From NCBI GenBank assembly GCA_003647065.1, contig QMMC01000002.1, forward strand, positions 1 to 52,371: a stretch of DNA of 52,371 nucleotides, written 5' to 3'. The translations under genes and the position numbers were made by a program. The stretch's first letter is position 1. The number at the start of each line of letters is the position of its first letter. The notes under the pieces were generated by a model. The model saw only the letters and a list, made by a program, of their open reading frames with translations. It was not told the DNA's origin and made no database searches. This DNA comes from Deltaproteobacteria bacterium (GTDB lineage: Bacteria; Myxococcota_A; Polyangia; Polyangiales; B10-G4). Shown one piece after another: positions 16,085 to 52,186 of this stretch.

Positions 16085-17461
16085 TCACCGCCGCCGGCCC
16101 AGTCTCATCCCGGCCACCGCGAGGAGGCCGAGAGTGAACGCGATGGCGTGACGCGGTGACGGGCCCCGGCTGCCGGCGGCGACGGTGCAACAGCCGCCGG
16201 ACTCCGACACGGGTTCCGGCTGGGCGAGGAGGCGGCAAGCGCCGTCCACGCAGGCTTCGCCTGGTTCGCAGAGCGCGCCCTCGTCGGTAGTGCCGTCGCA
16301 GTCGTCGTCCCATCCGTCACAGGTCTCGGTGACCGCCGGGCCGATCGCGCCTTCGCAGGTTCCCCAGAGGCCGTCGACGCAGGCCTGCATTCCCTGGACG
16401 CACACCCCGGCGTAGAGGCCGCAGGTTCGGGTGTCGCCGAGGATGCATGCGCAGCCGGGGTCGACCTCGCCATCGCAGTCGTCGTCGATGCCGTTGCACA
16501 CTTCGGTCGCGCCGGGGTTGACCAAGCCATCACCGTCGTCGCAGTCGACGATGTCGCGGTCGAGGGGCGTGCCGGGGACCGTCGGGTCGCTGCCGCAGGT
16601 GGTGTAGAGGTCGACGTCGAGGTCGAAGTCCTCGTCGACCGCATCGTCGCAGTCGTTGTCGTACCCGTCGCAAGTCTCCTCGGTGACGAAGCGGGCGATG
16701 GCGCCCATGGCGACGCGCAGCCCCGCGAGGTCGTCGGCTTGGTGGTAGCAGCGCGCGGCGCTGGTGGCGTCGTCGCTGTCCACGTCGCAACCGGTGACGG
16801 CCGTGCCCCCCGCCACCGCGGAGCGGTTGAGGGTGAGGGCGTCGACGCCCCGACCGAAGCCGATGACGTGCACGTACACCCCGAGGTCCCGCAGAGCCAT
16901 GATCGACGCGACGGGCCAGAATCGCTGTTCGCGAATGCACAGGCCAGAGGTGATGCAGCACTGCCGGCCGTCGGTGACCAGGATGATGTGGCGATCGCGG
17001 CTGGTATCGGTGAGGGCGCCTTCGGCCACCAGGAGATCGAGGGTCTGGCTGGTCGGCGTCCAGTTGCCACCGTGGGGAGGATCGTCGACGGGGAACGCGT
17101 CCATCACCTCGGCCGCCGAATGGGAGTCGACGTCGAGGACGACGCCGCCGGGATCGCAGGAGTCCGCCCCGTCGACCGCTGGAAAGAGCGCGACGCCGAA
17201 GTCGACCGTGGCGGCGAAGCCCGTCGCCAGCTCGTCGACCGCGCGCCGGGCGGCGCCCCACTTGCTGTGTCCGCTCGGCAGGAGGCCCGTTCGCGACGCC
17301 GACATCGACGACGACCGGTCGACGACCACCAGAATGCGCGGCGCTTCACATCGGGCCTGGGCCGCGGCCTGCGAGGGCGCGCTTGGAAAAGACGCCGTCA
17401 CGCCCAACAAGACCAGAAGATGGAAGAGGGAGGAAAAGGCTGTCGCTGAGGGGGATCGCAT
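16085..17461 (-). CDS. vWA-domain surface protein with Cys/Asp (MopE-like) repeats and MYXO-CTERM anchor
   Basis: Signal peptide; MIDAS DRSSS...TPT...TDG; repeats ExCDGxDNDCDxxxDE; C-terminal GGCC, linker, hydrophobic helix, RRR. Confidence 0.88.
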   Translation of the reverse strand: MRSPSATAFSSLFHLLVLLGVTASFPSAPSQAAAQARCEAPRILVVVDRSSSMSASRTGLLPSGHSKWGAARRAVDELATGFAATVDFGVALFPAVDGADSCDPGGVVLDVDSHSAAEVMDAFPVDDPPHGGNWTPTSQTLDLLVAEGALTDTSRDRHIILVTDGRQCCITSGLCIREQRFWPVASIMALRDLGVYVHVIGFGRGVDALTLNRSAVAGGTAVTGCDVDSDDATSAARCYHQADDLAGLRVAMGAIARFVTEETCDGYDNDCDDAVDEDFDLDVDLYTTCGSDPTVPGTPLDRDIVDCDDGDGLVNPGATEVCNGIDDDCDGEVDPGCACILGDTRTCGLYAGVCVQGMQACVDGLWGTCEGAIGPAVTETCDGWDDDCDGTTDEGALCEPGEACVDGACRLLAQPEPVSESGGCCTVAAGSRGPSPRHAIAFTLGLLAVAGMRLGRRR

Positions 17462-32500: not shown

Positions 32501-32744
32501 AGAAGGGCGCCATGCCGTCGACGCAGATTCCGTCCCGGCAGGCCTCGACTCCGTCGCAGAAGAGACCGTCGTCGCAGTCGGCGTCGACCGAGCAGCCGCG
32601 CACGATGGCATCCGGGGCGTCGACCCCGGAATCTGTCGGGGGAGCCCCGTCGGAGAAATCATCGAGGGCGCTACGGCCGCAGGCGGCGAGCGTCGCGGCG
32701 GCCGCAAGGAGCACCGCGACGGAGGCATAACGACGTGATTTCAT
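29574..32744 (-). CDS. Large Cys/Asp-rich repeat lipoprotein (about 21 ExCxDGxDxDCDGxxDCxDxDC repeats)
   Basis: Lipobox LAA|CGRSAL; N-terminal CDDGxFCNGxExC repeats, then about 21 units of about 33-35 aa counted by eye. Confidence 0.9.
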   Translation of the reverse strand: MKSRRYASVAVLLAAAATLAACGRSALDDFSDGAPPTDSGVDAPDAIVRGCSVDADCDDGLFCDGVEACRDGICVDGMAPFCDDGVDCTEDRCVEADRSCQFVPAPDLCPPGTMCDPVLGCEGRECRTNLDCDDRFVCNGAEECLDGFCMPGTPLDCNDGITCTVDECSEAVGGCSITAVDLRCDDGLFCNGAEGCDLLRGCFPGEPFFCGATSECSMDRCDETSRSCISAPLDRDRDGFGPPECGGLDCNDRNPMVNPRARELCGDIIDNNCDGLADCVDPLCAGSPECSMCTPIEFSCDDRIDEDCDGLVDCADPDCGFDPGCVLCVPELCGSGRDDDCDGLVDCSDPDCARDPFCMFCLPESCSDGFDNDCDRLIDCRDPDCALDPDCIVPCLPFEASCGNGFDDDCDGLTDCDDPECGSDPSCCVPSAEVCTDGLDNDCDGRVDCGDPNCATAPVCCRPSPENCANGVDDDCDGRIDCSDTDSCSRDPLCVVCSPEDCTNSFDDDCDGQMDCSDADCFVHPACGVCIPIPERCADGVDNDCDGQPDCSDPDCFGTPSCMFCTPEVCFDGVDNDCDRQVDCADADCSLDPSCRICVPEVCGNGIDDDCDTRTDCSDRDCQFDPACAMCGPETCSNGVDDDCDGAVDCMDSDCFVNPVCGACSSIEICRDGTDNDCDGQTDCADSDCVGNPICSVCLPFEICNDGIDDDCNGLADCDDPFCSFDPSCTGDCSPEQCRNGRDDDCDGILDCADPDCALDPLCSFCLPFEVCATGFDEDCNGLVDCDDPWCLGDPSCVTCEPFEIRCSDGGDDDCDGRVDCRDSDCLGDPACCVPSVEVCFDGIDNDCDFAVDCLDSSCAGDPSCCFPSPEVCFDGADNDCDGLFDCADRDCSGTPFCPGGAEDCGNGIDDDGDGATDCADSDCVSSPLCLMCTDRELGVAACTNGADDDCDGPVDCDDSDCSPFGPTGECCNGRDDDGDGLVDIFTCRCFDNSTCAGVGSFEQVCWTELYSVCGPRCDFLGGQALCDMVQPGLTCVTSGPLAGQCVPATTSLPAP

Positions 32745-32964
32745 GGGATTCACCAATTCTAACAGCCGCCTTCGAGGGGATCACGTAGCTGACGTGCGGG
32801 AGTCCCTGGAAGAGTCGTTCCAAGCCTTTGTCGCGCGAAATGTGACGGAAATTCAGCCCCCCACCGTGCCGGGGTGTGCCTTCCTCTCTATGTGAGCGCG
32901 CCGGCTCGTCACACAACCCTCGGAATATCGCGGAACCATGGGGGTTATGGCCCGCGCCCGTCTC

Positions 32965-38195: not shown

Positions 38196-39689
38196 TCAGG
38201 GAGGGCAGGCTCGGTTGCAGACGATGCTCCCGTCGGTGCACGTCGCGTCTCCACCGCCGCATGTCGAGTACTGGCACGTCGCCGACGGCACGTCGCAGCG
38301 TAGGCGGCATTTGGCGTCGGCGTGGCAATTGACGGTGCAGTTCGTCGCGCCGCGACAGTCTACATCACAGCTCGTATTGCGGTCCTTGCACTCGACGGTG
38401 ATGGTCTCACCGGACTGCATGCGGAAGTCGCAGTCGGCGCCGCTCTTGCAAAGCCCCGTGAACACCGCCGGGCTGCTCCCGAGCACGGTGCATTGGGTGT
38501 TGCGTTGCTCGCAGGTGATTAGACAATCCCTCGAGTCCGAGCAGAGGTAGCCGCAGTGGGCCCCGCCCGCGCACCCACAGTCCGCCGTGGACGGGTTACA
38601 GCCGTCGTTGCAGGGCCCGGCGAAGCAATCAATATGACAGAGCCCCCCGTTGCAGACCCCCGCGCAGGACGTCCCGCACGCGCCGCAGTTGTCCTCGTCT
38701 TCGTCTGGTCTTGATTCGCAGCCGTCCGTCGCCGATCCATTGCAATCGTTGAAGCCCGGGTCGCAAGAGTCGACGAGACAAGACGACGTCGAGCACTCCG
38801 GCGTTCCGTTGGGTGCTTCGCACGCGACGCCGCAAGCCCCGCAATCGGTCAGGGTATCGACGGCCATCTCGCAGCCGTTGGCCTCCATGCCATCGCAGTC
38901 ACCGAAGCCGATTTCACACGCGAAGTTGCACTCGCCGGCGCCGCAGCCGGCGACGGCGTGGTCCCGGGAGCAATCCACGCCGCAAGCGCCGCAGTCCGCC
39001 GGTGAATCCAGAGGTGCCTCGCACCCATTTCCGAGCACGCCATCGCAGTCATCGAAGCCCGCGTCGCAGCTCACGGCGCAGGCCCGTTCTACACAGGCCG
39101 GCTCAGCGTTCATCGGCGCCGAACAGGCCATATCGCAATCCCCGCAGTTCGCCGGGTCGTCCTCGGTGTTCACGCAGCGCGTTTCGCCGCAGAGGGTTGT
39201 TCCCGTAGCGCAGGTCGCGACGCACGTCGACGAACCCCCGAGGGTCTGACAGAGAGAACGCGTCACGCCGCACGCGGTGGTGCAGGAGCCGCAGCGCGCC
39301 GGCTCGGTCGTCGACGCTTCGCAGCCGTTCGACCGATCGCCATCGCAGTCGTCGAAGCCGGCATCGCAGTCGAGCCCGCAGACCCCCATGGTGCACATGG
39401 CGGCCGCGTTGGCCGGATCCACGCCGCAAGAAGTGCCGCACCGGCCACAGTTCTCGGGGTCCGCCATGATGTCGAACCCCTCGTCGATCATGCCATCGCA
39501 GTCGTCGTCAGCGGCATTGCAGCTCTCGGCCCTCGGGACGCATGCGTCGGGCCCGCGTACGCCCGTATCGCCCCCGTCGCCCCCGGAGTCCGCGGGCCCA
39601 GCGGCATCGGATCGGGGGAGCAAGGCACCGGTCTCGAGGGAGCACGCGGTGAGGAGCACGGCGATGGGCAGCCAGATGAAGCGAAGCAC
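38196..39689 (-). CDS. Cys-rich repeat lipoprotein
   Basis: GTG start, lipobox LTA|C; repeats CDAGFDDCDG...NGCE...CGxCG; C-terminal CxxxCxxxC-type domain. Confidence 0.85.
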   Translation of the reverse strand: MLRFIWLPIAVLLTACSLETGALLPRSDAAGPADSGGDGGDTGVRGPDACVPRAESCNAADDDCDGMIDEGFDIMADPENCGRCGTSCGVDPANAAAMCTMGVCGLDCDAGFDDCDGDRSNGCEASTTEPARCGSCTTACGVTRSLCQTLGGSSTCVATCATGTTLCGETRCVNTEDDPANCGDCDMACSAPMNAEPACVERACAVSCDAGFDDCDGVLGNGCEAPLDSPADCGACGVDCSRDHAVAGCGAGECNFACEIGFGDCDGMEANGCEMAVDTLTDCGACGVACEAPNGTPECSTSSCLVDSCDPGFNDCNGSATDGCESRPDEDEDNCGACGTSCAGVCNGGLCHIDCFAGPCNDGCNPSTADCGCAGGAHCGYLCSDSRDCLITCEQRNTQCTVLGSSPAVFTGLCKSGADCDFRMQSGETITVECKDRNTSCDVDCRGATNCTVNCHADAKCRLRCDVPSATCQYSTCGGGDATCTDGSIVCNRACPP

Positions 39690-40005
39690 GGTCTCCAAAG
39701 TGTACCCGAATGCCGACACCGGCAGATTCCCGCCGCTCGCCATGGTGTTCGGCCAGGCGACCCAGTGGCTCTCGGGTAGGCTCATGAAATGCGCCGGGGC
39801 CCGGCCGTGGGGTCCTCGGCCCCACCCGTCTGGCGACGGCGCCGCGGCCCAAGGGGGCCCGAAGTCCACCGGATCGGGCCCTCGAACTCCCCATGAGTAC
39901 GGGAAAGAGCCCCAAGTCGGTGATGGCACATCGTTTGCGGTTGAATCCGGTGCCGCCCCCAACCGGGAACCCCCGGCCCCAGCCGCAGTCTCACCAAGGA
40001 AATCC

Positions 40006-41352
40006 ATGTTGCTCGTACGACGCCTCTGCGCCTTCGCGATCACCGCCGCCGCCGCCACCACGTTGTCGGCCTGCGCCGCCCCCGGCGCCGACTACACCGA
40101 CAATGAAGGGGACGACCCTTACAAGTACGAGCAGCTCGAACTCTCGCGGAACGGCCGCTACACCCCCCCGGCCGACATCAAAGCGGCAGGCGAAGCCCAG
40201 CGGGGCACGTACCAATCCGCTGGCTCCTGGAATGGCGGTCGCAACTGCAGCGGGACCTTCACCGCCGGCGCTCGGGAACTCGGGCAGTATCTGGTCGAGA
40301 ATTTCGCGGCCACTTCATTCGAGGGCTACAGCTGCCGGCGCAACACCGCCGACCGTTCGCGCATGTCGATGCACGCCACAGGCCGGGCAATCGACGTCAT
40401 GATCCCCCTCGACGGGGGCCAGGCAGACAACGGCCTCGGGGACCCGATCGCCAACTATCTCATTCGCAACGCGACCGAGATCGGCGTGCAGTTCTTCATC
40501 TGGGACCGCACCAAGTGGAACATCCGGTACAGCGGTCGGAAGGATAAGAGCTACGGCGGCCCCCACCCCCACCACGACCATCTGCACATCGAGTTGAGTG
40601 CGGCTGGCAGTCGGCGGAGCACCCCTTGGTTCAACCGCGACTCGGGCACCAGCGACGTCACGCCGGTCGCTGATTCGCCAGCGGACAGCGGCGACACGCC
40701 GGCGGACAGCGGCGGCACCGCCGAGCCGACGCCGGACTTCGCCAGCGGCTGCACCGAGACGTGCCCCTACAGCGGCGACGGGGACTGCGACGACGGCGGC
40801 GACGGATCGGCCTACTCGGTGTGCGAGCTGGGAACCGACTGCCGCGACTGCGGGACCCGAAGCTCATCAGGCACAGCGACGCCCCCGAGCACCGACCCGG
40901 CCCCCTCGGAGCCCACCACGAGCTGCTCCGATTCATGCACCTACGCCCGAGACGGCGAGTGCGATGACGGTGGCCCCGGGGCGGCCTACACGGACTGCGC
41001 CCTCGGCACGGACTGCTCGGACTGCGGACCCCGAGGTGGCTCGTCGACCGAGCCTGTCGCCGCTTGCGGTGACGGGTGGTGCGACGCCGGCGAGACCTGC
41101 GGCACGTGCCCCGCGGATTGCGGAGTGTGCCCGGCGGAGGGGTGCGCCATCCCTGGTCACGGGACGAACGCCGAAGACGGCGGAAGCTGTTCCACCCTGG
41201 AATCCTGGCGCTGCGTATACAGCGCCCGGTATGGCTCGACCGTCTCTCAGGTGTGCCGGAGCGGCGGGTGGCTCAACTTCCACACGTCGCCCCGGGGCTG
41301 CGACACCTGCTGCGGCAGTTACTCCAGCGACTGTCGCCAAGCCGGGTCCTGA
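40006..41352 (+). CDS. Lipoprotein with LAS/M15-like zinc peptidase domain and Cys-rich repeats
   Basis: AAGGA RBS; lipobox LSA|C; SMHATGRAID (Hx6D) and HHDHLHIE (HxH); two CxYxxDGxCDDGGxG...CxLGTDCxDCG repeats. Confidence 0.82.
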   Translation: MLLVRRLCAFAITAAAATTLSACAAPGADYTDNEGDDPYKYEQLELSRNGRYTPPADIKAAGEAQRGTYQSAGSWNGGRNCSGTFTAGARELGQYLVENFAATSFEGYSCRRNTADRSRMSMHATGRAIDVMIPLDGGQADNGLGDPIANYLIRNATEIGVQFFIWDRTKWNIRYSGRKDKSYGGPHPHHDHLHIELSAAGSRRSTPWFNRDSGTSDVTPVADSPADSGDTPADSGGTAEPTPDFASGCTETCPYSGDGDCDDGGDGSAYSVCELGTDCRDCGTRSSSGTATPPSTDPAPSEPTTSCSDSCTYARDGECDDGGPGAAYTDCALGTDCSDCGPRGGSSTEPVAACGDGWCDAGETCGTCPADCGVCPAEGCAIPGHGTNAEDGGSCSTLESWRCVYSARYGSTVSQVCRSGGWLNFHTSPRGCDTCCGSYSSDCRQAGS

Positions 41353-41368
41353 CGAAGGCCCGGCCCGC

Positions 41369-42319
41369 TCAGTCCAGGATGGCGACGAGCTCTACGTCGA
41401 AGACCAGCATGCCCGCCGGGGCGCCGGGGCGGCCCTGGTAGGCGAGGTTCTCGGGGATCCAGAAGCGGCGCTGCTCGCCGGCGACCATGAGCTGCAGCCC
41501 CTCGGTCCAACCGGCGATGACCCGGTTGAGGGGGAAGACCGCGGGCTCGCCGCGGGTGCGGGAGCTGTCGAACATGTTCCCGTCCGTCGTCCACCCGGTG
41601 TAATGCACGCGCACCCGGCTCGTCTCGGCGGGGTGGGCGTCACCGGTCCCAGCCTCGATGACCTTGGACGCGAGGCCGCTGTCGGTGCGCTCCGCGTCCG
41701 CGGGGGCAGCCGCGACGTCGGTGGGGGCCGTCGGCGACCGGAGGATGCTCACCAACTCGATGTCGAAGACCAGCATGCCCGCGGGTGCGCCGGGGCGACC
41801 CTGGTAGGCGAGGGCCTCGGGGATCCACGCCCGCACCTTCTCGCCTTCGGCCATCAGCTTGAGCACCTCGGTCCAGCCAGCGATGACCCCGGTCACGCCG
41901 AAGGTGGCCGGCTGACCGCGGGCGATGGAACTGTCGAACATGTTTCCGTCGGTCGTCCAGCCGGTGTAGTGCACGCTCACCCGGTCCGCATCTGCGGGCT
42001 TGTTGTCGCTACTGCCGGGGCGGAGGACCTTGTAGGCGAGGCCTGACTCGGTGCGGGTCGCGTCAGCCGGAGCCTCGGCGACGTCGCTCGGTGCGGGGAT
42101 CGCGTTCGGCGCCGGCGGCCGGGCGCCGGCCTTCGTCGGAGTCCGGGCGGCCGCTGCGTTGTCCGCCGTGGGGGTGTCCCTGGACCCTGTCTCTTCATCG
42201 GAAGAGGCCGCCTCGTCCGTATTCGAGAAATCCGGCTCCTGGGCCCGGTCGCAACCGAGGGCCAGAAGGGAGGAGACGAGGATGAGGGCGGCGCTCCGCG
42301 CCAGCGTTTCGGCGGTCAT
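41369..42319 (-). CDS. FKBP-type peptidyl-prolyl isomerase lipoprotein with two FKBP domains
   Basis: VHYTGWTTDGNMFDSS...VIAGWTE...GMLVFD(I/V)ELV twice; lipobox ALG|C. Confidence 0.95.
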   Translation of the reverse strand: MTAETLARSAALILVSSLLALGCDRAQEPDFSNTDEAASSDEETGSRDTPTADNAAAARTPTKAGARPPAPNAIPAPSDVAEAPADATRTESGLAYKVLRPGSSDNKPADADRVSVHYTGWTTDGNMFDSSIARGQPATFGVTGVIAGWTEVLKLMAEGEKVRAWIPEALAYQGRPGAPAGMLVFDIELVSILRSPTAPTDVAAAPADAERTDSGLASKVIEAGTGDAHPAETSRVRVHYTGWTTDGNMFDSSRTRGEPAVFPLNRVIAGWTEGLQLMVAGEQRRFWIPENLAYQGRPGAPAGMLVFDVELVAILD

Positions 42320-43103
42320 GGGAGCGGGTCGTAGTCCAATGTGGGGGCCGTTTCAACCGGCTCGCCGACTGAAATGGAAGCCATGACGCGGTAGGCGTCG
42401 GATGGCCGAGGATCTATCGACCGCCGGTGGTCGTCGTCGGGGCCTCGGCGCCCCCCTGGAGGGGCCCCACGCGCTCATTCGAGTTCCCGTTCGATGCGAA
42501 TATCGGGGGCGCGCACGACATCGCCCGCGGCGTCGGTACCGACCGTGAGTTCGAAAACGGACGTGATTCCATCATCATCGAGGTCTCCGTGGGCTCGGAA
42601 GGTATAGAGCGCCTCGTTCGGCCCGTGGCCGCAGCTGGCCGGAGGGGCAACGATCTCATACCGGAAATAGACGGGACCGGTGACGGGAAAGCCAATCTCG
42701 CGGAAAGGGGCATCAAGGGCACCTAGCGCCTGAAGCTCGGAGCCGGGCACGTTGGTGGTAATGGCAGGGCCAACTGTGCAGTTGCTCTCGTAGGAGCCGC
42801 CTGCTCGCGAGCGTTCTTGCATGTAATATCCGGTCGCACCCACGAAGAGCATCCCAAGGTTCGAGTGGGCCTCGAGAGTCTTCAAGCGCCGCACGTGGTC
42901 AGCCGGCGAGGCTGCGGCCTCCGAGGTCTCGTGACCCGCAGGCTCCGACGACGGCGGGTCGGAGGCCTCATGCTCATCGGCCCGATCGCAGCCGAGAGCC
43001 GATAGAGAGAAAACGAAGAGGAGGGCGGCGCTCCACGCCAGCGTTTCGGCGGTCATGGGAGCGGCTCGTAGTCCAATGTGGGTGCAGTTTCAACCGGCTC
43101 GCC
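42242..43103. repeat. Dispersed 125-bp direct repeat (42242-42366 and 42979-43103) covering upstream region plus signal peptide
   Basis: The last 83 bp match at 79 positions by manual alignment; both copies encode MTAETLAxSAAL...ALGCDRA. Confidence 0.92.
42475..43056 (-). CDS. Lipoprotein carrying a type IV pilin-like head domain (chimeric gene)
   Basis: FKBP-like signal peptide, then HVRRLKTLEAHSNL...AHGDLDDDG...ERELE, clearly paralogous to 45378-46001. Confidence 0.8.
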   Translation of the reverse strand: MTAETLAWSAALLFVFSLSALGCDRADEHEASDPPSSEPAGHETSEAAASPADHVRRLKTLEAHSNLGMLFVGATGYYMQERSRAGGSYESNCTVGPAITTNVPGSELQALGALDAPFREIGFPVTGPVYFRYEIVAPPASCGHGPNEALYTFRAHGDLDDDGITSVFELTVGTDAAGDVVRAPDIRIERELE

Positions 43104-43126
43104 ACGGGGGCCGAGATAGACGCCGC

Positions 43127-44653
43127 CTACCCGCAGAGATTGTCGCGGGGGACGCACTGCTTCGGGATGTAGAACTGGTCCTCGATGTCGGTGAGGCGGG
43201 CGCAGCGCGCGCCCTCGCCGCAGGCGGCGTCGGTGGTGCAGCCGACGCCGCACCTTCCCTCGCCACCGATGCCGAGGCAGAGGTTGCCGCCAGCGCCGCA
43301 GTCGGCGTCCGTGGTGCACGGCTGACAGGCGATGCCTTCGGATGCATGGGGGTTGAGCTGCGGGTCGCCGTCGATGCCGTGCACGCCGTAGTGCACGCTG
43401 CGGAAGGCTTCGGTATTGAGGCCGCGCAGCATGCTCAGCCAGCTGATGGGGTAGTGCCGGCCGGCGTCATCCGTGATGGTCAACCAGGTCACGAACTCGT
43501 GCAGGGTCTGATATCCCACCGAGAACGGGGTGGTGTTCACGGTCGTGACGATGTCGACGTTGTCGAAGGTCTTGTTGGGGTTCGCCATCAAGTCGTCGAC
43601 GTAGCTGCGGTAGGTCTGGCAGCCGTCGAGAACGAAAATCTGATAGCTGTCGCGCATCTCGAGGGTGGCGAAATCACGTGCCGGGATTTCGTGGCGCGGC
43701 TGGTAGTCGAGGATGAAGCCGGCCCCGGGGCCCGCGTGGCCCGAGTAGATCACGACGTCACGGGCCCGGAAGCTCTCACGAATGGCGTCGCTCAGCTTGG
43801 ACTCCTCGTCGGCGGTGACCATGTCCGAGTGGTAGACGTAGACCCGAACCTCGACCTCCCGGCTTTCGACGAAGATCGTCTTGGTGAACGGAGGCGAGTC
43901 GATGGCGAGGGACTCGAAGTCCGACACCGCCTGGTTTTCGAAGCCGCGTTCGTTCAGGAGGTATTCGACGAGCCACTTCGCGGTCTCGAGGTCGAAGCGA
44001 CCTTCGTTGTAGTCGCCGCCGAAGTGAATGCCGATGTCGTAGATGCCATCGGCGAAGAGCTCGTCGTACTTCGGGAAAGCGTCACGGCTCTCGCTGCCCG
44101 CGATCTCGACCTCGACCGTCTCACCGGTGGGCTCGGACCAATCTTGGACGGTCACCGAGAAGGTACGCCGGCTCGCCGTGCCGGGAGCCAGCTGGCTCAT
44201 GAGGTAGTGGCTGCCCACCAGGCCGATTCGAAAGGTGAACCGAGCCTCGGTTCCGACGACTTCGGTCCCCTCGGTCTCGGCGGCGTTCTTCTGGAAGTAG
44301 GTGAACCAGCTGACGTCGTCCCCGGTCTCGCCGCCGTTGGATTCCCCGACGACCGACGTCACGTGAGCCCGAATTGCACGGCTCACGGTGTTGAGGCGTC
44401 CCTGAACGGCCCGGTCGAGGGCTGCGTTCTGCTCATCCTCGGACAGGTCCGCGTAGTCCTCGGGGAGGGCTGCGTGGGCGATGCCGCTGAGTTCGAACTC
44501 CCGGGCGTTGGAGGAGATGTAGTTGTCGGCCTTGCCGTCCTCGGCCGGGATGACTTCGTGGGGGCCCGCTCCCGCTTCGATGGAAGCGTTGGGGCCAGAG
44601 ACCGCGCACCCGGTGAGGGCGAGCAAGAGGGCGTTCATGACGAGGCGAGACAT
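43127..44653 (-). CDS. Lipoprotein with putative caspase/gingipain-like (clan CD) His-Cys domain and C-terminal Cys-rich module
   Basis: Lipobox LTG|C; DGKAD motif; DVVIYSGHAG and YQIFVLDGCQT. Confidence 0.7.
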   Translation of the reverse strand: MSRLVMNALLLALTGCAVSGPNASIEAGAGPHEVIPAEDGKADNYISSNAREFELSGIAHAALPEDYADLSEDEQNAALDRAVQGRLNTVSRAIRAHVTSVVGESNGGETGDDVSWFTYFQKNAAETEGTEVVGTEARFTFRIGLVGSHYLMSQLAPGTASRRTFSVTVQDWSEPTGETVEVEIAGSESRDAFPKYDELFADGIYDIGIHFGGDYNEGRFDLETAKWLVEYLLNERGFENQAVSDFESLAIDSPPFTKTIFVESREVEVRVYVYHSDMVTADEESKLSDAIRESFRARDVVIYSGHAGPGAGFILDYQPRHEIPARDFATLEMRDSYQIFVLDGCQTYRSYVDDLMANPNKTFDNVDIVTTVNTTPFSVGYQTLHEFVTWLTITDDAGRHYPISWLSMLRGLNTEAFRSVHYGVHGIDGDPQLNPHASEGIACQPCTTDADCGAGGNLCLGIGGEGRCGVGCTTDAACGEGARCARLTDIEDQFYIPKQCVPRDNLCG

Positions 44654-44806
44654 GGTGCGCTTGCCTAACGCAACAGACATGCCAGAAAGCGCCCCCAGAA
44701 AGCGCAGCGATTCCTTAGCCTTGCCGGTGGTGGTGGTGGCCACCGGTCTCGCCGCGGCCGCCGCGCGAGCCGGGGAGCCTTGCCGCTGCGCCCTAAGCCT
44801 TCGGCC

Positions 44807-45322
44807 CTACTCGCAGGCGCCGGGGCCGTCCATCAGCGCCCCGTCCGCCCCGCAGCGGTAACGGCAGATGGTCGAGTCACCCTCGCACCCTACGGAGCAG
44901 CTGCCGAGGCAGGTGACGGTGCACTCGCCGCGGTCGATGCACGAGACGCTCGACCCGGCGCCTACCTCGATGGTGCAGTTCGCCGCGCGGCAGAGGACCA
45001 TCGAGTCATCGCCAGCGTAGAGCACGCAGGTGGTGCCCTCGACGCAGGTGAGGTCGCTGTTGTTGCCGCCGGCGGCGCCGCAGTCGGAGTCTTCCTTGCA
45101 CTCGAAGGCGCAGCTGTCGCCGCACTGGAGCGCGCACTGGGAACTCGTGTCACAGGCGCAGTCGTTCGCGTCGACGCAGGGGCAAGCGTCCCCGGGACAG
45201 GTCGGATAGTCCGGCAAGACGGGGCCCGACTCGCTCGAGCATGCGGCAAGCCCAAAGACCACAAGAGACGCAAGGGCGATGGACAGGCCGAGGGCCGGGG
45301 TGAAAGACGTGACCTTGATCAT
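44807..45322 (-). CDS. Small Cys-rich lipoprotein
   Basis: Lipobox LAA|C; regularly spaced Cys similar to the C-terminal domain of 38196-39689. Confidence 0.8.
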   Translation of the reverse strand: MIKVTSFTPALGLSIALASLVVFGLAACSSESGPVLPDYPTCPGDACPCVDANDCACDTSSQCALQCGDSCAFECKEDSDCGAAGGNNSDLTCVEGTTCVLYAGDDSMVLCRAANCTIEVGAGSSVSCIDRGECTVTCLGSCSVGCEGDSTICRYRCGADGALMDGPGACE

Positions 45323-45360
45323 TCGAGTTCCTGTTCGATGTAAAGAGCGGGGGCGGGAGT
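45319..45360 (-). pseudogene. Orphan 3' tail of a third pilin-like gene
   Basis: Reads TPAPALYIEQELE-stop, versus RTPGFYVGQELE-stop and RAPDIRIERELE-stop; DNA repeats 45376-45412; no start codon. Confidence 0.7.
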
Positions 45361-45377
45361 AAGAGACGTACGCTGGA

Positions 45378-46001
45378 TCATTCGAGTTCCTGTCCGACGT
45401 AGAAACCCGGGGTACGGAAGACCTCGCCCATTTCGTTGGTGCCGACGGAGAGTTCGAGGAGCGAGGTCACCCCATCGCCGTCGAGGTCACCATGGGCCCG
45501 GAAGCTATAGAGCGCTTCGTTTGGCCCATGGCCACAGCGGGCCGGGCCGGCGACGATTTCGTATTGGAAGAAGACCGGCTCGAAGGGCGCGAAGCCGAGT
45601 TCGCTGAATGCGGCGTCGAGGGGGCCGAGCACCTGTTTCTGGTCGGTCGGTACGTTCGGGGTGACGGCCGGCCCGACCGTGCAATGGGTCTGGGTCGTCC
45701 CGTCCGGACCCATGCGCTCCTGTTCGTAATAGCTCGCCGCGCCGGCGAAGAGCGTCCTGAGGTTCGAGGTCGCCTCGGCGGTATTGGACCGGCGCACGTA
45801 GTTGATGAACGCGGGGATGGCGATGGCAGCCAGCACGCCGGTGCAGGGCACACAGCCGACGACGAGGACCAGCACCAGGATCAGCAGGCCGACCTTCTTC
45901 TTGGGGGCAGGAGACGGAGGAGACGCCGGAGTCGGCGGAGTCGGCGGAGTCGGCGGAGACGCCGGAGTCGGCGGACCGCCGTAGGCTGGAGCACTGGCCA
46001 T
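45378..46001 (-). CDS. Type IV pilin-like protein with non-canonical Pro-rich N-terminus
   Basis: GVLAAIAIPAFINYVRRSNTAEATSNL is a pilin alpha1 helix; no G|FTLxE prepilin site; (PPT)n leader, KKK, then TM helix. Confidence 0.8.
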   Translation of the reverse strand: MASAPAYGGPPTPASPPTPPTPPTPASPPSPAPKKKVGLLILVLVLVVGCVPCTGVLAAIAIPAFINYVRRSNTAEATSNLRTLFAGAASYYEQERMGPDGTTQTHCTVGPAVTPNVPTDQKQVLGPLDAAFSELGFAPFEPVFFQYEIVAGPARCGHGPNEALYSFRAHGDLDGDGVTSLLELSVGTNEMGEVFRTPGFYVGQELE

Positions 46002-46087
46002 GGCCGAAACGCTCTCACGGTGACTGGCGTCGCGGCAAGTGAATGGCACAGAAGTGGACCCCGCCGGGCTTGCCTCCCTAGCCTGGG

Positions 46088-46759
46088 GTGGTGAAGCACC
46101 AAGCGCCCCGATTCCGGCTGCAGAACCCATTGCTGACAGCCCTCTTGCTGCTCTCGTCCTCGGTGATGCTCGGCGCCTGCGGCGGCGCGACACCGGACGC
46201 CAACGAGCCGCTCCGGGGCGCCGGGGCGCAGCACGAACTCTCCACCGACGATCCCATCGCCCAGGCCCTCGCCGCCCGCCTGACGATCTGGGTCTCCCGG
46301 GACGGTGAGCCGACCTACGCGCGGCATTGTCGCAACGCCCCCGGAGGCTGCGAAGCGCGCATCGCGACGCTCGCCGAGCTGCTCGAAGATGCCGCCGACC
46401 GCCACGGCCTCGACCCCTGGCTCTTCGCCGCCGTCGCCGTGCGCGAGTCGATGTTGAACCCGGCCGCCATCGGCGCCCAGGGCGAGGCGGGCATCGTCCA
46501 GCTGCACCCCCGCGGCGCCGGCCACGACATGCGCTACGTCCAAGACGCGTCCTACCGCGAAGCGTGCCAGAGCCGCGTCGACGCCTGCCAGGGGCCGGTC
46601 GTCGAGCGCGGCGCCCAACACCTCGCCGATGCGATCGAAGGCTGCGGCGGCACCCGCGCCGGCCTCGGCAAGTACGCGTCCGGGCGCTGCGGAGCGGCGG
46701 CGACCTACGTCGAGCGAATGATGGCCGAGCGCGACCGCCTCGAGTCGTCCCAGCGCTGA
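46088..46759 (+). CDS. SLT-domain lytic transglycosylase lipoprotein
   Basis: Lipobox LGA|C; HGLDPWLFAAVAVRES (catalytic Glu), GEAGIVQL, LGKYASG. Confidence 0.85.
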   Translation: MVKHQAPRFRLQNPLLTALLLLSSSVMLGACGGATPDANEPLRGAGAQHELSTDDPIAQALAARLTIWVSRDGEPTYARHCRNAPGGCEARIATLAELLEDAADRHGLDPWLFAAVAVRESMLNPAAIGAQGEAGIVQLHPRGAGHDMRYVQDASYREACQSRVDACQGPVVERGAQHLADAIEGCGGTRAGLGKYASGRCGAAATYVERMMAERDRLESSQR

Positions 46760-46775
46760 GCGCTAAGAGGCCCGT

Positions 46776-47867
46776 TCAGAGGCCCAAGACGCCCTCGACC
46801 CGCTCCATCATCTTCACTCGTCGCTGGGTAATCGGGCTCGAGCCGTCGAGCAGAGCGTCGGTCTCTTCGAGGACCTGCTCGAGGGTGAACCGCGACACGT
46901 GGGGGTCCTTGGTCGCTGTGCCGCCTTCAACCGGTGCCTGCCACGCGACCATCTCGTCGCTCGCCCCCTCGAGGAGGGCGCCGAGGGCCTGCATGGAGAG
47001 GCGCCCGGCCATGGCCCGGTCTTGGTAGCTCGGTGAGCCGCCGCGAACGAGATGGCCGAGGACCGTCGCGCGGATGTCGACCCCGAGGCGCTCCCCGAGG
47101 CGCTCGTCGAGGGTCCGGGCGAGGAGGGTCGCGGGCACCTTCACCCCCTCGCTCTTGATGATGAGCACTCGTTTCTTGTCGCGACCCGGCGCGAAGCCGC
47201 GGACGATCGCGTCCTCGACGCTCTTCATGACGTCTTCTTCGCTGCGCCCCTGCTCCCGAAAGAGCACGGCGTCGGCGCCGACGGCGATGGCGCTCGCCAT
47301 GGCGAGGTACCCGCACTCACGCCCCATGACCTCGACGACGAAGGCGCGCCGGTGGGCTCGGGCGGTATCGCTGATGCGATCGCAGGCCTCGACGATGGTG
47401 TTCAGGGCCGTGTCGACGCCGATGGCCAGGCCCGTGCAGCCGATGTCGTTGTCGATCGACGCCGGCATCCCCATGACCTGAAGCTTGGGGTGCTCCTTCG
47501 ACAGCAGGTGGGCCCCCGTGAGCGAGCCGTTCCCCCCGATCACCACCAACGCACCGACGCCCGCCTCGGCGAGGCGCTTCGCCGCCTCGGCCCTGCCCTC
47601 CTCGGTACGGAACCGCGCGGAGCGGGCCGAGCCGAGGACGGTACCCCCGAGGCTGCCTATGAGGTCGAGGCCCTTCGCCGCCGCGAAGCCGTTCACGTTG
47701 CTGCGGTTCAGATCACGGAACGACCCGTCCATGAGGCCGTCGTAGCCGCGCTCGACGCCGAGGATCTCGACGCCGGCGGCGGCGCCCAACTTGGCGATCG
47801 CTCGAATCGCCATGTTCATGCCCGGGGCATCCCCCCCGGACGTCAGTACCGCTACGCGTTTGCCCAT
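46776..47867 (-). CDS. pfkA: 6-phosphofructokinase (PfkA family)
   Basis: LTSGGDAPGMN, IGGNGS, PASIDND, FVVEVMGR, VLGHLVRGG. Confidence 0.96.
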   Translation of the reverse strand: MGKRVAVLTSGGDAPGMNMAIRAIAKLGAAAGVEILGVERGYDGLMDGSFRDLNRSNVNGFAAAKGLDLIGSLGGTVLGSARSARFRTEEGRAEAAKRLAEAGVGALVVIGGNGSLTGAHLLSKEHPKLQVMGMPASIDNDIGCTGLAIGVDTALNTIVEACDRISDTARAHRRAFVVEVMGRECGYLAMASAIAVGADAVLFREQGRSEEDVMKSVEDAIVRGFAPGRDKKRVLIIKSEGVKVPATLLARTLDERLGERLGVDIRATVLGHLVRGGSPSYQDRAMAGRLSMQALGALLEGASDEMVAWQAPVEGGTATKDPHVSRFTLEQVLEETDALLDGSSPITQRRVKMMERVEGVLGL

Positions 47868-47921: not shown

Positions 47922-50483
47922 TCAGGGGACCACGGTCGAGCAATCGGCGCTGCAGCGGTCACCGCTGACGTTGTTACCGTCGTCGCAGACCTCGCCGCCG
48001 TCGAGGATGCCGTCCCCGCAGGAAGGCACGGTGCAGTCCGTGCGACACATGGACGGGGTGTTGGCGAAGGTGATTTGCACCTGGGTGCTCATGTCGAGGG
48101 AAGTGAAGATGCTGCCTTCGTTGACCCAACGGAAGTTGGTCATGCCGAAGCGGAAGGTCGGGTCGAGGGTGACCGTGTAGTTGCCCGGGACCGGCACGTC
48201 GCTGACGATGGCACCGTCGGTATTGGCCCGGAACCACCAGTCGCCACGGTATCCCGTGGAACCGACCGGGAAGAACTCCATCGGCGTATCGTCGGCGAGC
48301 GCAACGGACGTGCCCGCCGGAAAGCCAGCGATGTCGAAGACGATCTCGGCGGTGGGCTGGAAGACCCCGGTCGTGTCCTGGTCGATGCCGTGCACGATGA
48401 AGAGACTCATCACGCCGGTATTGAGGTCGCGGTAAAGGAAGATGTTCGAGAGCCCCGCCTCCTCCCAGCCGGTGTGCGCGCTGGCGCTGACGAGCCCATA
48501 GAAGAACGTCGCCGGGGTGAAGCGCTCGACCGGGGCGACAGCGACGCTGACGCCGCCGGCCTGGGTCACGAGGATCGCCGGTCGGTCGTCGTTCGAGGTA
48601 CCGAGGTCACAGACCTCGCCAATGCCCGTCTCGAGGATACCGTTTCCGCAGACGTCGACCTCGACCGCACAGGAAGATGAGCAGCCGTCCCCCGACGTCG
48701 TATTGCCGTCGTCGCAGGCTTCGGAGCACTCCCGGCGCCCGTTGCCGCAGGCCTCGAGCTGGCACATCGCAGAGCATCCGTCGCAGTCCGTGACGCCGCC
48801 GTCATCGCATTGCTCACCCGGGTCCCTGCGGCCGTCACCACAGCGCGGCGGGGGCGGCTCGATGGCGCAGCTCGAGGAACACCCGTCGCCGTTGACCCGG
48901 TTTCCGTCGTCGCACGACTCCAAGCACTCGAGGCGCCCGTTGCCGCATGCCTCACGCAGACAGACCGACGAACACCCGTCGCAGCTGCGGACGTTGCGAT
49001 CGTCGCACTCTTCCCCGGGGTCGAGGCGGCCATCCCCGCACTCGGGCGGCGGGGGCTCGATGGCGCAGGAGGAGGAGCATCCGTCGCCGTTGACGACATT
49101 GCCGTCGTCGCACATTTCCATGCACTCCACCCGGCCGTTGCCGCAGAGCTCGATGAGGCACCGGGTCCCGGAGCAGCCGTCGCAGTCCCGGTTGTTTCCG
49201 TCATCACACTCCTCGCCGGGGTCGGTGAAACCATCACCACACATGGGGATTTCGATGGTGCACATGTCGGAACACCCATCTCGGGGAGTGGTGTTGCCGT
49301 CGTCGCACTGCTCGGCGCATTCGAGCACGGAGTTGCCGCAACCCTCGGTCTGGCAGGTATTGGAGCACCCGTCGCAGCTCGTCGCGTTGCCGTCGTCGCA
49401 GGCCTCGCCGGGGTCCCGGGTCCCATCGCCGCACCGGGGCGTTTCGATGGTGCACATCGGGGAGCACCCGTCTCCGGGGAGGGGGTTGCCGTCGTCGCAC
49501 TCCTCGACGCAGTCGAGGCTGCCGTTGCCGCAGACCTCGGGCATGCACGAGGGTGAGCACCCATCACAGGGCAGGCGATTTCCGTCGTCGCAGCGCTCAC
49601 CGCGGTCCAAGACGCCGTTGCCACAGACGCGGCTCTCGAACTGGCAGCGGTCGGAACAACCGTCGCCGGAGGTGGTGTTGCCGTCGTCGCAGGCCTCCGC
49701 GCAATCGAGGGCGCCGTTGCCGCAGATTTCGATGGTGCAGAATGGCGAGCACCCGTCGCAGGAAACGGCGCCGCCGTCGTCGCACTCTTCACCGGGTTCG
49801 CGGATTCCGTCCCCGCAGCGCCCCGCTTCGACCTCACACGTAGCCGAGCAACCATCGCCGGGGCGATTGTTGCCGTCGTCGCATTCTTCGCCACACTCGT
49901 GGAGGCCGTTGCCGCAGGCCTCGACGGTGCACATCGGAGAGCACCCGTCGCATTCGACGCGGCCGCCGTCGTCGCATCCTTCGCCGGGGTCGAGCCGGCC
50001 GTTGCCGCAGGAGGCGAGCTCTACCTGGCAGCGGGCAGAACACCCGTCGCCGGGGCGTGTATTGCCGTCGTCACATTCTTCACGGCATTCGATCACGCGG
50101 TTCCCGCAGGCCTCCCGGGTGCAGCGCTCCGAGCAACCGTCACAAGAGTTGGCGTTGCCGTCGTCACACTCTTCGCCGAGCTGGATGACCCCGTCGCCGC
50201 AGCCCATGGTGACCACCTCGGCCCGGCAGGTGCTGGAGCACCCATCCCCGTCGATGAGGTTGCCATCGTCGCACTCCTCGCCAACGTCGATGACGCGATT
50301 GCCGCACCGCGGCATGGATGAATCGACCCTGCTGTCGACACCGCTATCCATGCGGCGAGTGATGCCGGTGTCCGTGGACCCGTCGACTCCACCATCGGCA
50401 CCAGGAGTCAGCCGGAGGGTGCTGCGACCGCAGCCAGCCACCAAGAGGAAGGAGGAAATTGCGAGGAGTACGACCGGGCGCAT
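47922..50483 (-). CDS. Myxococcus Cys-rich repeat (DUF4215-like) lipoprotein with inserted beta-rich domain
   Basis: Lipobox VAG|CGRSTL; about 19 CGxG...ExCDDGN...DGCS..C units; start 50483 chosen from the -10 position (50495 is possible). Confidence 0.9.
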   Translation of the reverse strand: MRPVVLLAISSFLLVAGCGRSTLRLTPGADGGVDGSTDTGITRRMDSGVDSRVDSSMPRCGNRVIDVGEECDDGNLIDGDGCSSTCRAEVVTMGCGDGVIQLGEECDDGNANSCDGCSERCTREACGNRVIECREECDDGNTRPGDGCSARCQVELASCGNGRLDPGEGCDDGGRVECDGCSPMCTVEACGNGLHECGEECDDGNNRPGDGCSATCEVEAGRCGDGIREPGEECDDGGAVSCDGCSPFCTIEICGNGALDCAEACDDGNTTSGDGCSDRCQFESRVCGNGVLDRGERCDDGNRLPCDGCSPSCMPEVCGNGSLDCVEECDDGNPLPGDGCSPMCTIETPRCGDGTRDPGEACDDGNATSCDGCSNTCQTEGCGNSVLECAEQCDDGNTTPRDGCSDMCTIEIPMCGDGFTDPGEECDDGNNRDCDGCSGTRCLIELCGNGRVECMEMCDDGNVVNGDGCSSSCAIEPPPPECGDGRLDPGEECDDRNVRSCDGCSSVCLREACGNGRLECLESCDDGNRVNGDGCSSSCAIEPPPPRCGDGRRDPGEQCDDGGVTDCDGCSAMCQLEACGNGRRECSEACDDGNTTSGDGCSSSCAVEVDVCGNGILETGIGEVCDLGTSNDDRPAILVTQAGGVSVAVAPVERFTPATFFYGLVSASAHTGWEEAGLSNIFLYRDLNTGVMSLFIVHGIDQDTTGVFQPTAEIVFDIAGFPAGTSVALADDTPMEFFPVGSTGYRGDWWFRANTDGAIVSDVPVPGNYTVTLDPTFRFGMTNFRWVNEGSIFTSLDMSTQVQITFANTPSMCRTDCTVPSCGDGILDGGEVCDDGNNVSGDRCSADCSTVVP

Positions 50484-50584
50484 GAGGTTCAGCATAGCGG
50501 ATAGAACGAGGCGGGGCGTCTTAGTGGCGATCCAGACGTAGTGAAACGAGGGGCTTTTCGGGGTACACTTCCCCTGCTTTGCAT

Positions 50585-52186
50585 ATGTCGCTATTGGTCT
50601 CCCTCTTTTCCGTAGCCCTCGTTTTTGCGGGGTGCTCATCCCCACGGACGAGCCCAACCCCCGACAGCGGGGTGCCCGTGGACGGCGGAGGTGACGCCGG
50701 AGACAGCGGTACGCCGACCGACGGAGGCATGGATTCCACGACCCCGCCCGGGGACAGCGGCTCCATGACCGGCGACGGAGGCATCGTGCAGCTCGGCGAG
50801 GGCCTCGTGCTCCGGGGCGTCGTCCTGACCCCCTCGGGCCCCCTCGACCCGGGCGAGGTCTACGTCGTCGACAATACGATCCGCTGCGTCGCCGCCGACT
50901 GCTCGGGCGAGACCGGCGCCGCCGACGCCACCATCATCGAGACCGGCGGGGTGATCTCCCCGGGCCTCATCGACGGCCACAACCACCTGCCCTACAACTT
51001 CCTCGACGAGTGGGTCCCGGACCCGCTGACCCTCTACGACAATCGCTACCTATGGTCCGACGTGCCCTCCTACGAGGCCCACGTCGAGCCCTACAGCGCC
51101 CACCGCTCGACGGGCACGCACTACTGCCCCGCCGCCAAGTGGGGCGAGCTCCGCGCTCTGGTCCACGGGACCACGACCATCCAGGGCCAGTCGTTCCAGC
51201 AGAGCTGCGTCAACCGCCTGGTGCGCAACGCCGACCACTTCCATGGCCTCGGCCACGACCACATGCGCACCAGCATCGCGTCCCCGCGGGACATCACGGA
51301 TTCTCAGGCGACGAGCTTCGTCGCCAGCTTCACCGACCCCGACGAGCCCGTCACCCGCCTCGCCGTGCACATGGGTGAGGGCGTCATGGGCTCGAACCTC
51401 GAACTCGAGTTCGGCTCCTTCGCCGGCCGCGATACGCGCACCAACCGCCACGCCGGCACGTCGCTGCTCGAGGCCATGGACGGCAGCTACCGCGGCACGG
51501 GCATGCTCATCCACGCCGTCGCCCTCAACGACACCGAGCTCATCGAGGTCGCCGACACCGACTCCAAGATCGTGTGGTCCCCCTCGAGCAACATGGTGCT
51601 CTACGGCCAGACCGCCGACATCGGGCGCATCCTCGAGCTCGGCATCACCGTCGGCCTCGGCCCCGACTGGACCGTCTCCGGCGAGGACGAAATGCTCAGC
51701 GAGATGCGCTTCGCCTTGGACTGGGCCCGAGCCGAAGGCGTCGCCGCAGTGACCCCCGAGGCCCTGGTGCGCATGGCCACGGGAGACGGCGCCGAGGTCG
51801 TCGGGCTGCCGACCATCGGCACCCTCGAAGTGGGGCAGGTCGCCGACATCACCGTCTTTGCGCGCATCGGCGCCGACCCGTATCTCGCCGTCGTCGAGAG
51901 CCGCGCCCAAGACGTCGCCTTGGTGCTCATCGACGGCCAGGCTTATTACGGCGACCTCGCCTACGAGATGGCGACCTCGGTCAACGGCGAGTGCGACATG
52001 ATCGACGCCTGCGGCACGGCCAAGTTCGTGTGCGTGAAGAACACCCCCGGCGCCGACAGCCGCGCCGACGAGAGCCTCGAAGACATCCGCGTCCAGCTGG
52101 TGAACATCCTCGAAGGCACCGGGTATCCCGCCGACGAGCAGTACGGCCGGGGCGACGAGCTCCTCGAGCTGATCAGCTGCGACTGA
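50585..52186 (+). CDS. Metal-dependent amidohydrolase (deaminase-like) lipoprotein
   Basis: Lipobox FAG|C; PGLIDGHNH, AVHMGEG, LIHAV, VGLGPDW, IGTLEVGQVADI. Confidence 0.9.
   Translation: MSLLVSLFSVALVFAGCSSPRTSPTPDSGVPVDGGGDAGDSGTPTDGGMDSTTPPGDSGSMTGDGGIVQLGEGLVLRGVVLTPSGPLDPGEVYVVDNTIRCVAADCSGETGAADATIIETGGVISPGLIDGHNHLPYNFLDEWVPDPLTLYDNRYLWSDVPSYEAHVEPYSAHRSTGTHYCPAAKWGELRALVHGTTTIQGQSFQQSCVNRLVRNADHFHGLGHDHMRTSIASPRDITDSQATSFVASFTDPDEPVTRLAVHMGEGVMGSNLELEFGSFAGRDTRTNRHAGTSLLEAMDGSYRGTGMLIHAVALNDTELIEVADTDSKIVWSPSSNMVLYGQTADIGRILELGITVGLGPDWTVSGEDEMLSEMRFALDWARAEGVAAVTPEALVRMATGDGAEVVGLPTIGTLEVGQVADITVFARIGADPYLAVVESRAQDVALVLIDGQAYYGDLAYEMATSVNGECDMIDACGTAKFVCVKNTPGADSRADESLEDIRVQLVNILEGTGYPADEQYGRGDELLELISCD

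Follow-up and report, generated by a model that had tools for sequence, protein, structure and literature searches.

Introduction

The prepilin signal is the defining feature of type IV pilins. The pilE/pilS system of Neisseria comprises many silent, promoterless partial copies and a short conserved 3′ sequence. Tandem duplication by unequal exchange between short direct repeats and deletion between direct repeats are general mechanisms of rearrangement. For Geobacter, one study (PMC5174107) describes a pilin in which the head (GSU1497) is split from the N-terminal helix (GSU1496) and carries its own signal peptide, an arrangement attributed there to duplication and degeneration. Here we analyse a locus within 52,371 nucleotides (nt) of DNA from a deltaproteobacterium (GTDB lineage Myxococcota_A; assembly GCA_003647065.1, contig QMMC01000002.1, positions 1 to 52,371 of the forward strand; this whole stretch is in the following called the window). 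At positions 42320-46087 lies a four-gene block of envelope proteins, consisting of a pilin-like gene (gene A), a gene for a lipoprotein of 507 amino acids (aa), a gene for a Cys-rich lipoprotein and a second pilin-like gene (gene B).

An initial annotation, made from the sequence alone, had described this region as a pilin-head shuffling locus, loosely analogous to silent pilin cassettes. What it had observed in the sequence is confirmed here, and its interpretation is supported in part: anchor swapping and recombination find support, cassette-type shuffling does not. We consider it probable that A and B are pilin paralogs without a prepilin signal that were re-anchored, and that a pilin tail beside gene B was displaced by a 59-nt duplication, through ordinary local recombination.

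Genes A and B encode pilin paralogs that lost the prepilin signal

A and B are old paralogs in a Myxococcota type IV pilin family (58-59% identical across 142-147 aa), and both have lost the prepilin (class III) signal. Their assignment to this family draws mainly on sequence comparison, with the match in fold in second place. A word-indexed search with B yielded 265 proteins at E<=0.001, and an exhaustive HMMER search with A yielded 337 cluster representatives at E<=0.001. Among the 120 best matches of B, 60 are canonical pilins with a G-F-T-L-I-E start and 39-47% identity over 68-90% of B; another 34 show a Lys run, a hydrophobic stretch and P-C-x-G ahead of a conserved LAAIAIPAF, and the other 26 represent further forms, mostly similar and non-canonical. 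More distant homologs among the 265, with 40-47% identity, carry PF07963 (N_methyl) and G-F-T-L-I-E. B matched the Myxococcota PilA model NF041775 over residues 38-94 (E=1.4e-08; 35 bits, far under the cut-off of 400) and the helix of Myxococcus xanthus PilA (8tj2 residues 7-54; E=4.2e-06). A metagenome scan with B found 80 loci, none of them more than 47% identical and most of them canonical pilins; P0001, an ortholog with 93% identity, was absent from this set.

The AlphaFold2 (AF2) model of B (predicted local distance difference test, pLDDT, 91; predicted template modelling score, pTM, 0.75) consists of a helix at residues 36-93 followed by a beta-sheet of five strands. When it was compared with 48,161 chains by VIA-align, the top 20 rows were all pilins or pseudopilins, with Z values of 5.4-7.5, which are moderate, and the best row was M. 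xanthus PilA 8tj2 (Z 7.5, root-mean-square deviation 3.6, 127 residues aligned). A Foldseek search with the same model gave no match at E<=0.001. By homologs and fold matches, A and B are thus pilin-type heads, as the initial annotation had proposed. It had also stated that neither full copy has a prepilin-peptidase site, and this holds as well: neither protein matched any Pfam family at E<=0.1, PF07963 included, and neither G-F-T-L-I-E nor G-[FM]-[ST]-L-I-E was found in A or B.

B keeps the whole alpha1 helix, in which a generic hydrophobic segment that contains Cys and follows a Lys run stands in for the first half, as it does in a large clade of relatives (non-canonical membrane-helix rows, below). 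The start codon of B is backed by the family members P0001, P0003 and P0004, which begin with M-x-x-AP-x-YGGPP. A conserved Pro-rich stretch of 33 residues precedes the Lys run KKK, which is followed by a Gly (KKKVG) that P0005-P0007 do not have, and a lipobox-like LVVGC is located at residues 45-49. The Pro-rich N-terminus of B would be cytoplasmic and its head periplasmic; A would be a lipoprotein. We infer that membrane tethering holds both heads on the periplasmic side, and that they neither polymerise into pili nor form part of a filament.

For a phylogenetic analysis we took 267 proteins, removed the window's own two, those of <160 or >235 aa and those not ending in E, and added A and B, which gave 233 rows: 136 canonical, 77 with a non-canonical membrane helix, three lipoproteins and 17 unclassed (truncated or unclear). 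The FastTree tree was built only from columns past the N-terminal helix half; its supports are local and many forks are open, and it is read here for coarse points only. One clade of 76 rows holds 71 of the 77 non-canonical rows, and the anchor labels require 8 changes on the tree, compared with 65.5 for shuffled labels. Of the lipoprotein forms, A and P0122 group as sisters (support 96) within a set of rows that includes B, P0001, P0003, P0004 and P0005, and P0236 stands apart as a separate form. A keyword search of the literature, with most subscription journals outside its coverage, found no description of such pilin forms.

It is unlikely that B, and with it the non-canonical clade in general, builds true filaments after processing and assembly along a route not yet recognised. 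The continuous 58-residue helix of B, with the near-invariant G55, A58, A59, A61 and P63 of alpha1, would suit such a subunit, and so would the Gly after the Lys run in B and its three nearest relatives; but this Gly is missing in P0005-P0007, and there is no Glu at +5 in the non-canonical sequences inspected. The M-x-x-AP-x-YGGPP start, predicted to be cytoplasmic, is conserved in P0001, P0003 and P0004, which suggests that it is kept in the mature protein. As to the machinery, the window's assembly contains four ORFs (open reading frames) with N_methyl and three A24 peptidase-like genes (contigs C443 and C444 are concerned), and a canonical member of the ELE-ending pilin family was not found in it; the peptidase-like genes and this negative result would also suit such a route. 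With 7.1 Mb in 594 contigs and 86% completeness, this assembly limits all whole-genome copy counts. Related genes in two other genomes, G035 and G022, lie among genes for lipoproteins and secreted proteins and not in pilus clusters, as far as the ORF listing tells, and the same genomes also hold canonical pilins. Several family genes, at least one of them canonical, stand in tandem in G001, a genome of the same genus (C27:50-55 kb). No pilus assembly domain was detected among the six locus proteins or 22 other large ORFs of the window.

Gene A carries a copy of the signal of the neighbouring FKBP gene

Gene A has neither the first half of the pilin helix nor a non-canonical Cys helix. Its first 28 codons and the 47 nt upstream fall within one copy of a 132-nt direct repeat, D3 (87% identical, with identical runs of 29, 17, 17 and 14 nt), whose other copy covers the start of the adjacent gene for an FKBP-type peptidyl-prolyl isomerase lipoprotein. 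The signals of the FKBP orthologs in G001 and in a further genome, G005, end in C-N-R-N-E-E-P and C-D-R-K-E-E-P, respectively, and share the pattern C-[DN]-R-x-[EQ]-E-P. Because these orthologs carry the same signal pattern, the signal is native to FKBP and A has the copy. For gene A, the suggested anchor swapping is therefore real, the upstream region of the FKBP gene having been copied together with the signal.

Signal-peptide statements for A and B were derived from the lipobox pattern only. A has a lipobox, LSALGC, at residues 18-23 that fits the pattern [LVI][ASTVI][GAS]C. The protein starts with MTAETLAW and thus has no Lys or Arg there, the Arg at position 8 of the FKBP copy being Trp in A (R8W). 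Its sister P0122 has 187 aa, is 52-55% identical to A and has a signal ending in LVVGC, followed by DRAQ. The RNA downstream of A's stop codon folds no better than shuffled sequences (z=-0.18).

The FKBP gene itself contains an internal duplication within 41376-42041 (300 nt, 76% identical, spacing 366 nt), which yields two FKBP_C domains.

The orphan tail as the probable displaced 3′ end of gene B

The 13-mer TCATTCGAGTTCC had been reported at 42475, 45319 and 45378, and an exact search located it at these three positions and nowhere else in the window, even allowing one mismatch (expected count 0.04; at least three copies in 0/100 shuffles). All three copies read Glu-Leu-Glu-stop on the minus strand, and those at 42475 and 45378 terminate genes A and B. 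The initial annotation had linked this shared 3′ sequence to a shuffling locus. The protein comparisons point to a C-terminus conserved throughout the family and not to a recombination site: the C-terminal residue is Glu in 120/120 best homologs of B, the ELE end occurs in 71/120, and E207, the last residue of B, is invariant in 54/54 aligned sequences. Relatives encode the ELE end with other codons and stops, and GAACTCGAATGA is used by 0/6 family ORFs inspected. The 13-mer is present three times because of homology, at the ends of A and B and at the former end of B.

This former end is the orphan tail T37 at 45319. As initially noted, it is a short remnant whose stop lies over the start of the Cys-rich lipoprotein gene: after 12 codons, its TGA overlaps the ATG as ATGA. 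The stop of B likewise overlaps an ATG, a point that had been missed, so that a mini-ORF of 20 codons bridges the two ATGA overlaps. T37 fits the family consensus R-A-P-x-x-Y-x-x-x-E-L-E well, and among 104,704 window positions its first 20 nt match at >=16/20 only themselves and the tail of A. The 22-nt piece between the stop of B and T37 matches at >=15/22 only itself and 45297-45318 (104,700 positions). The region thus consists of two 59-nt units in tandem (D5), each with a tail, a stop and the start of a next gene, which are 76% identical.

To compare populations, contigs from four public runs (X1-X4) were aligned onto 42000-46200; X1 is possibly the source run, X3 comes from another study, and X3 and X4 represent related populations. 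A 751-nt contig of X4 joins 45355 straight to 45415 and thereby skips 59 nt, with no ambiguity (both=0). The junction is in frame: B ends with ...FR-APALYIEQELE-stop, the stop overlapping the lipoprotein start. This contig differs from the window at 23/526 nt (4.4%) on the lipoprotein side and at 26/224 nt (11.6%) in B. A contig of X3 spans 44909-45851 with 40 differences and no gap. Because gene B of X4 ends with T37, the tail represents the former or alternative 3′ end of B, and a third gene is not needed to account for it. The initial annotation had named a local duplication of this kind, affecting the end of the gene, as the scenario that would refute its own view, and this scenario comes close to the structure seen here. 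Assigning all 42 nt between the stop of B and the ELE tail to lipoprotein-start sequence was rejected, as X4 shows that the last 20 are pilin tail.

That the tail is instead what remains of a third, deleted paralog between B and the lipoprotein gene, as had been supposed initially, we regard as improbable. T37 is well formed as a pilin tail and agrees with the consensus of the family, and it is nearer to the end of A (32/37) than to the present end of B (29/37). However, X4 joins it in frame to the body of B with no extra gene between, and the 22 nt that separate it from the stop of B have their homology with the start of the lipoprotein gene and not with a pilin body. The 80 nt upstream of the tail's stop match A at 38 and B at 36 positions, so that homology extends no further than about 37 nt.

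Without the duplication, the first 20 nt of T37 and nt 23-42 of the lipoprotein gene are alike at 14/20 positions and lie exactly 59 nt apart. The displacement of the tail would have begun with a tandem duplication of the 59-nt unit (last 12 codons, stop and 22 nt after the stop), probably via unequal exchange between these imperfect 20-nt direct repeats, for which the partner could have been the same lineage or a diverged allele. B now stops in the upstream copy, and the old tail would survive because the lipoprotein gene has its ribosome-binding stretch and its overlapping start there. It keeps an AGGA 7 nt before the lipoprotein ATG (AGGA-N7-ATGA), and the fold of the RNA of 45290-45420 is less stable than that of every one of 200 shuffled sequences (z=+2.59). 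Both the AGGA spacing and the weak fold fit a continued use as translation start region.

Structural polymorphism at an accessory block

A second structural difference concerns gene A. A 477-nt contig of X3 joins 42328 to 43066 and skips 737 nt, with 35 letters that fit both sides; in the flanks of this joint (record 17), 19/329 and 10/132 letters differ from the window. The contigs of X4 cover parts outside 42423-43127, with no joint in that stretch, and the contigs of X1 and X2 have 0 differences. Gene A together with one repeat copy would come and go by recombination between the 132-nt repeats. In support of the proposed recombination, the locus is structurally polymorphic among close relatives, with the 737-nt and the 59-nt skips; both events look like generic recombination, not like a dedicated variation system. 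Smaller differences affect the N-terminal part of B: P0001 has a shorter PTPPTPPTP stretch than B, and X4 has an extra CTT behind 45893, corresponding to one added Lys codon as in P0001.

Outside the main joint table, one more joint is listed for X3 at a depth of 4.6; it leads from the end of A (42535) into the middle of B (45579), separated by 17 other letters. It would skip the conserved head core and may have arisen artificially by multi-mapping or reflect a third, diverged copy in that population.

The gene order is PFK-SLT-FKBP in G001, where the SLT gene stands directly beside the FKBP gene, and PFK-FKBP in G005. Because the four genes of 42320-46087 are missing between FKBP and SLT/PFK in these genomes, the block represents an accessory insertion. 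Its lipoproteins were considered as conserved partners of the pilin-like genes and rejected: the ortholog of the Cys-rich lipoprotein in G022 (60% identical) is about 60 kb from a B-like gene, and orthologs of the 507-aa lipoprotein in G005 and G020 lie on other contigs than the pilin-like genes.

A programmed pilin-type variation system, in which the tail, A and B would be cassette parts and heads would be swapped by conversion at the 3′ sequence, is very unlikely. The 13-mer stands three times at gene ends, which such a system could explain, but ELE is conserved as protein, and none of the six relatives uses GAACTCGAATGA. The two structural polymorphisms affect exactly these genes among close relatives and the body of B is more diverged in X4 than the lipoprotein gene; yet the 86% complete assembly holds A, B and the 37-nt tail, with weak matches (E>=0.001) elsewhere in a search of the whole of it, and the analogy to silent cassettes is not supported. 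Nor did the mosaicism between A and B, which the initial annotation had wished to see examined, become apparent: the longest identical run is the terminal 13 nt, and a codon-column permutation over 444 aligned nt gave no signal of gene conversion (p=0.62). The GC content at third codon positions is lower in A (0.72) and B (0.80) than in all five neighbouring genes (0.88-0.90), which would also suit cassette parts; A and B are, however, intact and differently anchored genes. Glu is encoded by GAA in 8/12 cases in B, versus 29% overall across nine window genes. As already noted initially, no recombinase is visible in the window: no recombinase, integrase or transposase domain was detected among the 22 large ORFs scanned (Pfam, E<=1e-5).

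Mis-joins in a metagenome-assembled genome are scarcely credible as the source of the 59-nt duplicate and the repeat-flanked gene A. Repeats in an assembly of 594 contigs invite mis-assembly, but at both places the contigs of X1 and X2, which were built separately, show 0 differences from the window, and X3, which comes from another study, covers the 59-nt duplication continuously. Neither the 59-nt unit, with 18 nt, nor D3, with 29 nt, contains an identical stretch as long as the 31-letter words of the run index.

Features of the locus and neighbouring genes

The positions of all features are compiled in Table 1. A scan for promoters and terminators gave 0 promoter-like sites and one terminator-like site, which is located within a gene, and an Rfam scan of 41000-47000 gave no match at E<=0.1.

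Table 1 Features of the pilin-like locus and its borders, with positions in the window.
Feature	Position	Strand	Description
FKBP-type peptidyl-prolyl isomerase lipoprotein gene	41369..42319	-	Pfam FKBP_C E=2.8e-44; source of the copied signal
Repeat D3a	42235..42366	-	47 nt upstream of the FKBP gene and its first 28 codons (signal peptide, lipobox, CDRAQE)
737-nt segment	42329..43065	.	Gene A and one D3 copy; absent from the X3 contig
Gene A	42475..43056	-	193 aa: lipoprotein signal, linker, alpha1C (second pilin-helix half), head ending in ERELE
Repeat D3b	42972..43103	-	Copy heading gene A (FKBP upstream region and signal peptide)
507-aa lipoprotein gene	43127..44650	-	Conserved family, no Pfam model, Cys-rich C-terminus
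Cys-rich lipoprotein gene	44807..45322	-	171 aa; ATG overlaps the stop of the orphan tail; ortholog in G022 60% identical
Orphan tail T37	45319..45355	-	12 pilin-tail codons and stop, (R)APALYIEQELE-stop; former 3′ end of B
Mini-ORF	45381..45319	-	20 codons, MIQRTSLTPAPALYIEQELE-stop; spans two ATGA overlaps
59-nt segment	45356..45414	-	In window and X3, absent in X4; T37′ and 22 nt
22-nt piece	45356-45377	-	Homologous to the lipoprotein gene start
Current tail of B, T37′	45378-45414	-	Reads RTPGFYVGQELE-stop
Gene B	45378..46001	-	207 aa: Pro-rich N-terminus, KKK, membrane helix VVGCVPCTGVLAAIAIPAF, pilin head ending in GQELE
Tandem 9-nt repeats (D2)	45910..45975	-	5 copies spaced 9 nt, encoding PTPPTPPTP of the B N-terminus
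SLT-domain lytic transglycosylase lipoprotein gene	46088..46759	+	Pfam SLT E=6.3e-09; far border of the block

The 507-aa lipoprotein belongs to a family of 252 proteins at E<=1e-10, which are 50-80% identical, all unnamed and without Pfam match, and in which S-G-H (303-305) and D-G-C (342-344) are invariant. Its AF2 model (pLDDT 84) gave weak Foldseek matches (E from 2e-3 to 1e-2, probability at most 0.98) to gingipains, a metacaspase and a C11 protease; going by this model, the protein may be an unannotated caspase- or gingipain-like cysteine peptidase. A complex prediction for the head of B (64-207) with the Cys-rich lipoprotein (28-171) gave no decision (score 0.00, mark 0.32).

The window is rich in large Cys-rich repeat proteins with a MopE-type metal-binding motif or DUF4215 (16085-17461, 29574-32756, 38196-40061 and 47922-50657), and the pilin-like block is thus set among many secreted Cys-rich proteins.

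Discussion

The reading that we favour, local recombination acting on re-anchored pilin paralogs, draws together what is shown here, namely family and fold, the loss of the prepilin motif, the copying of the signal, the duplication at the junction and both polymorphisms. Several points weigh against it. The two 59-nt copies differ at 15/59 positions, more than the strains that differ by the indel (4.4% and 11.6%), so that a simple, recent duplication in place fits poorly; this divergence argues for an exchange with a diverged allele, consistent with the higher divergence of B, or for an old polymorphism. X3 and X4 are represented by low-depth metagenome contigs (about 4-5x), whose differences are known from tables, and since loss by repeat recombination and gain by integration at the repeat give the same product, either X3 may have lost gene A or the window may have gained it. 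With R8W, the signal of A has lost its sole Arg, and A may therefore be poorly exported. P0122 also has GCDRAQ after its lipobox; the signal in A may therefore be an old copy whose similarity was maintained by conversion, or P0122 may match by chance. Members of the B clade have a lipobox-like VVGC and A-x-A before the conserved Pro, a combination with which cleavage may be possible. Export, lipidation, cleavage and non-polymerisation of A and B are all deduced from their sequences.

A wider interpretation is more tentative, and we offer it as a possibility with clearly less than even weight: the non-cleavable Cys-helix clade (77/233) and the lipoprotein offshoots (A with P0122; P0236) might constitute an undescribed class of pilin heads that departed from the filament and are now tethered in the envelope, movable, re-anchored modules that capture the promoter and export signal of a neighbour and turn over fast in natural populations. 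If so, turnover would proceed by presence or absence of A, replacement of the B tail and variation of the Pro-rich repeats, perhaps under selection by phages or prey contact. Within this one pilin family, the prepilin signal has been dropped in a large clade and in no fewer than two distinct lineages of lipoprotein form, all with the conserved head kept. Gene A preserves a trace of its anchor acquisition in the 132-nt copy, and so provides a concrete case in which domain exaptation and the capture of a signal can be tested. The locus also calls for caution, as a shared 3′ motif with a gene-end remnant can come from a conserved C-terminus and a junction duplication, not from a cassette system.

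Compared with known systems, A and B are homologous in sequence and fold to the type IVa major pilins of Myxococcota (M. xanthus PilA 8tj2, NF041775). Unlike these, they lack a prepilin leader as well as Gly-1/Phe+1/Glu+5, do not match PF07963 and lie outside any pilus gene cluster. With pilE/pilS of Neisseria the locus shares a pilin-family gene, a nearby partial, promoterless 3′ piece and a short conserved 3′ sequence; it differs in having a single 37-nt piece, no conversion signal and a 3′ sequence that is coding (ELE-stop) and family-wide. The 14/20-identical 20-mers 59 nt apart and the 737-nt indel bounded by 132-nt repeats resemble the substrates of unequal exchange and of deletion between direct repeats, respectively, whereas the 25% divergence of the two 59-nt copies, greater than that between strains, is unlike a simple tandem duplication.

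The closest precedent for a pilin head with its own export signal is Geobacter GSU1497 (PMC5174107). There, too, the head domain is exported by a signal of its own, apart from the N-terminal helix, and it adjoins and works with a short canonical pilin (PMC5174107). Unlike this pair, A and B have no adjacent helix-only partner gene, and the signal of A has been copied from an unrelated neighbour.

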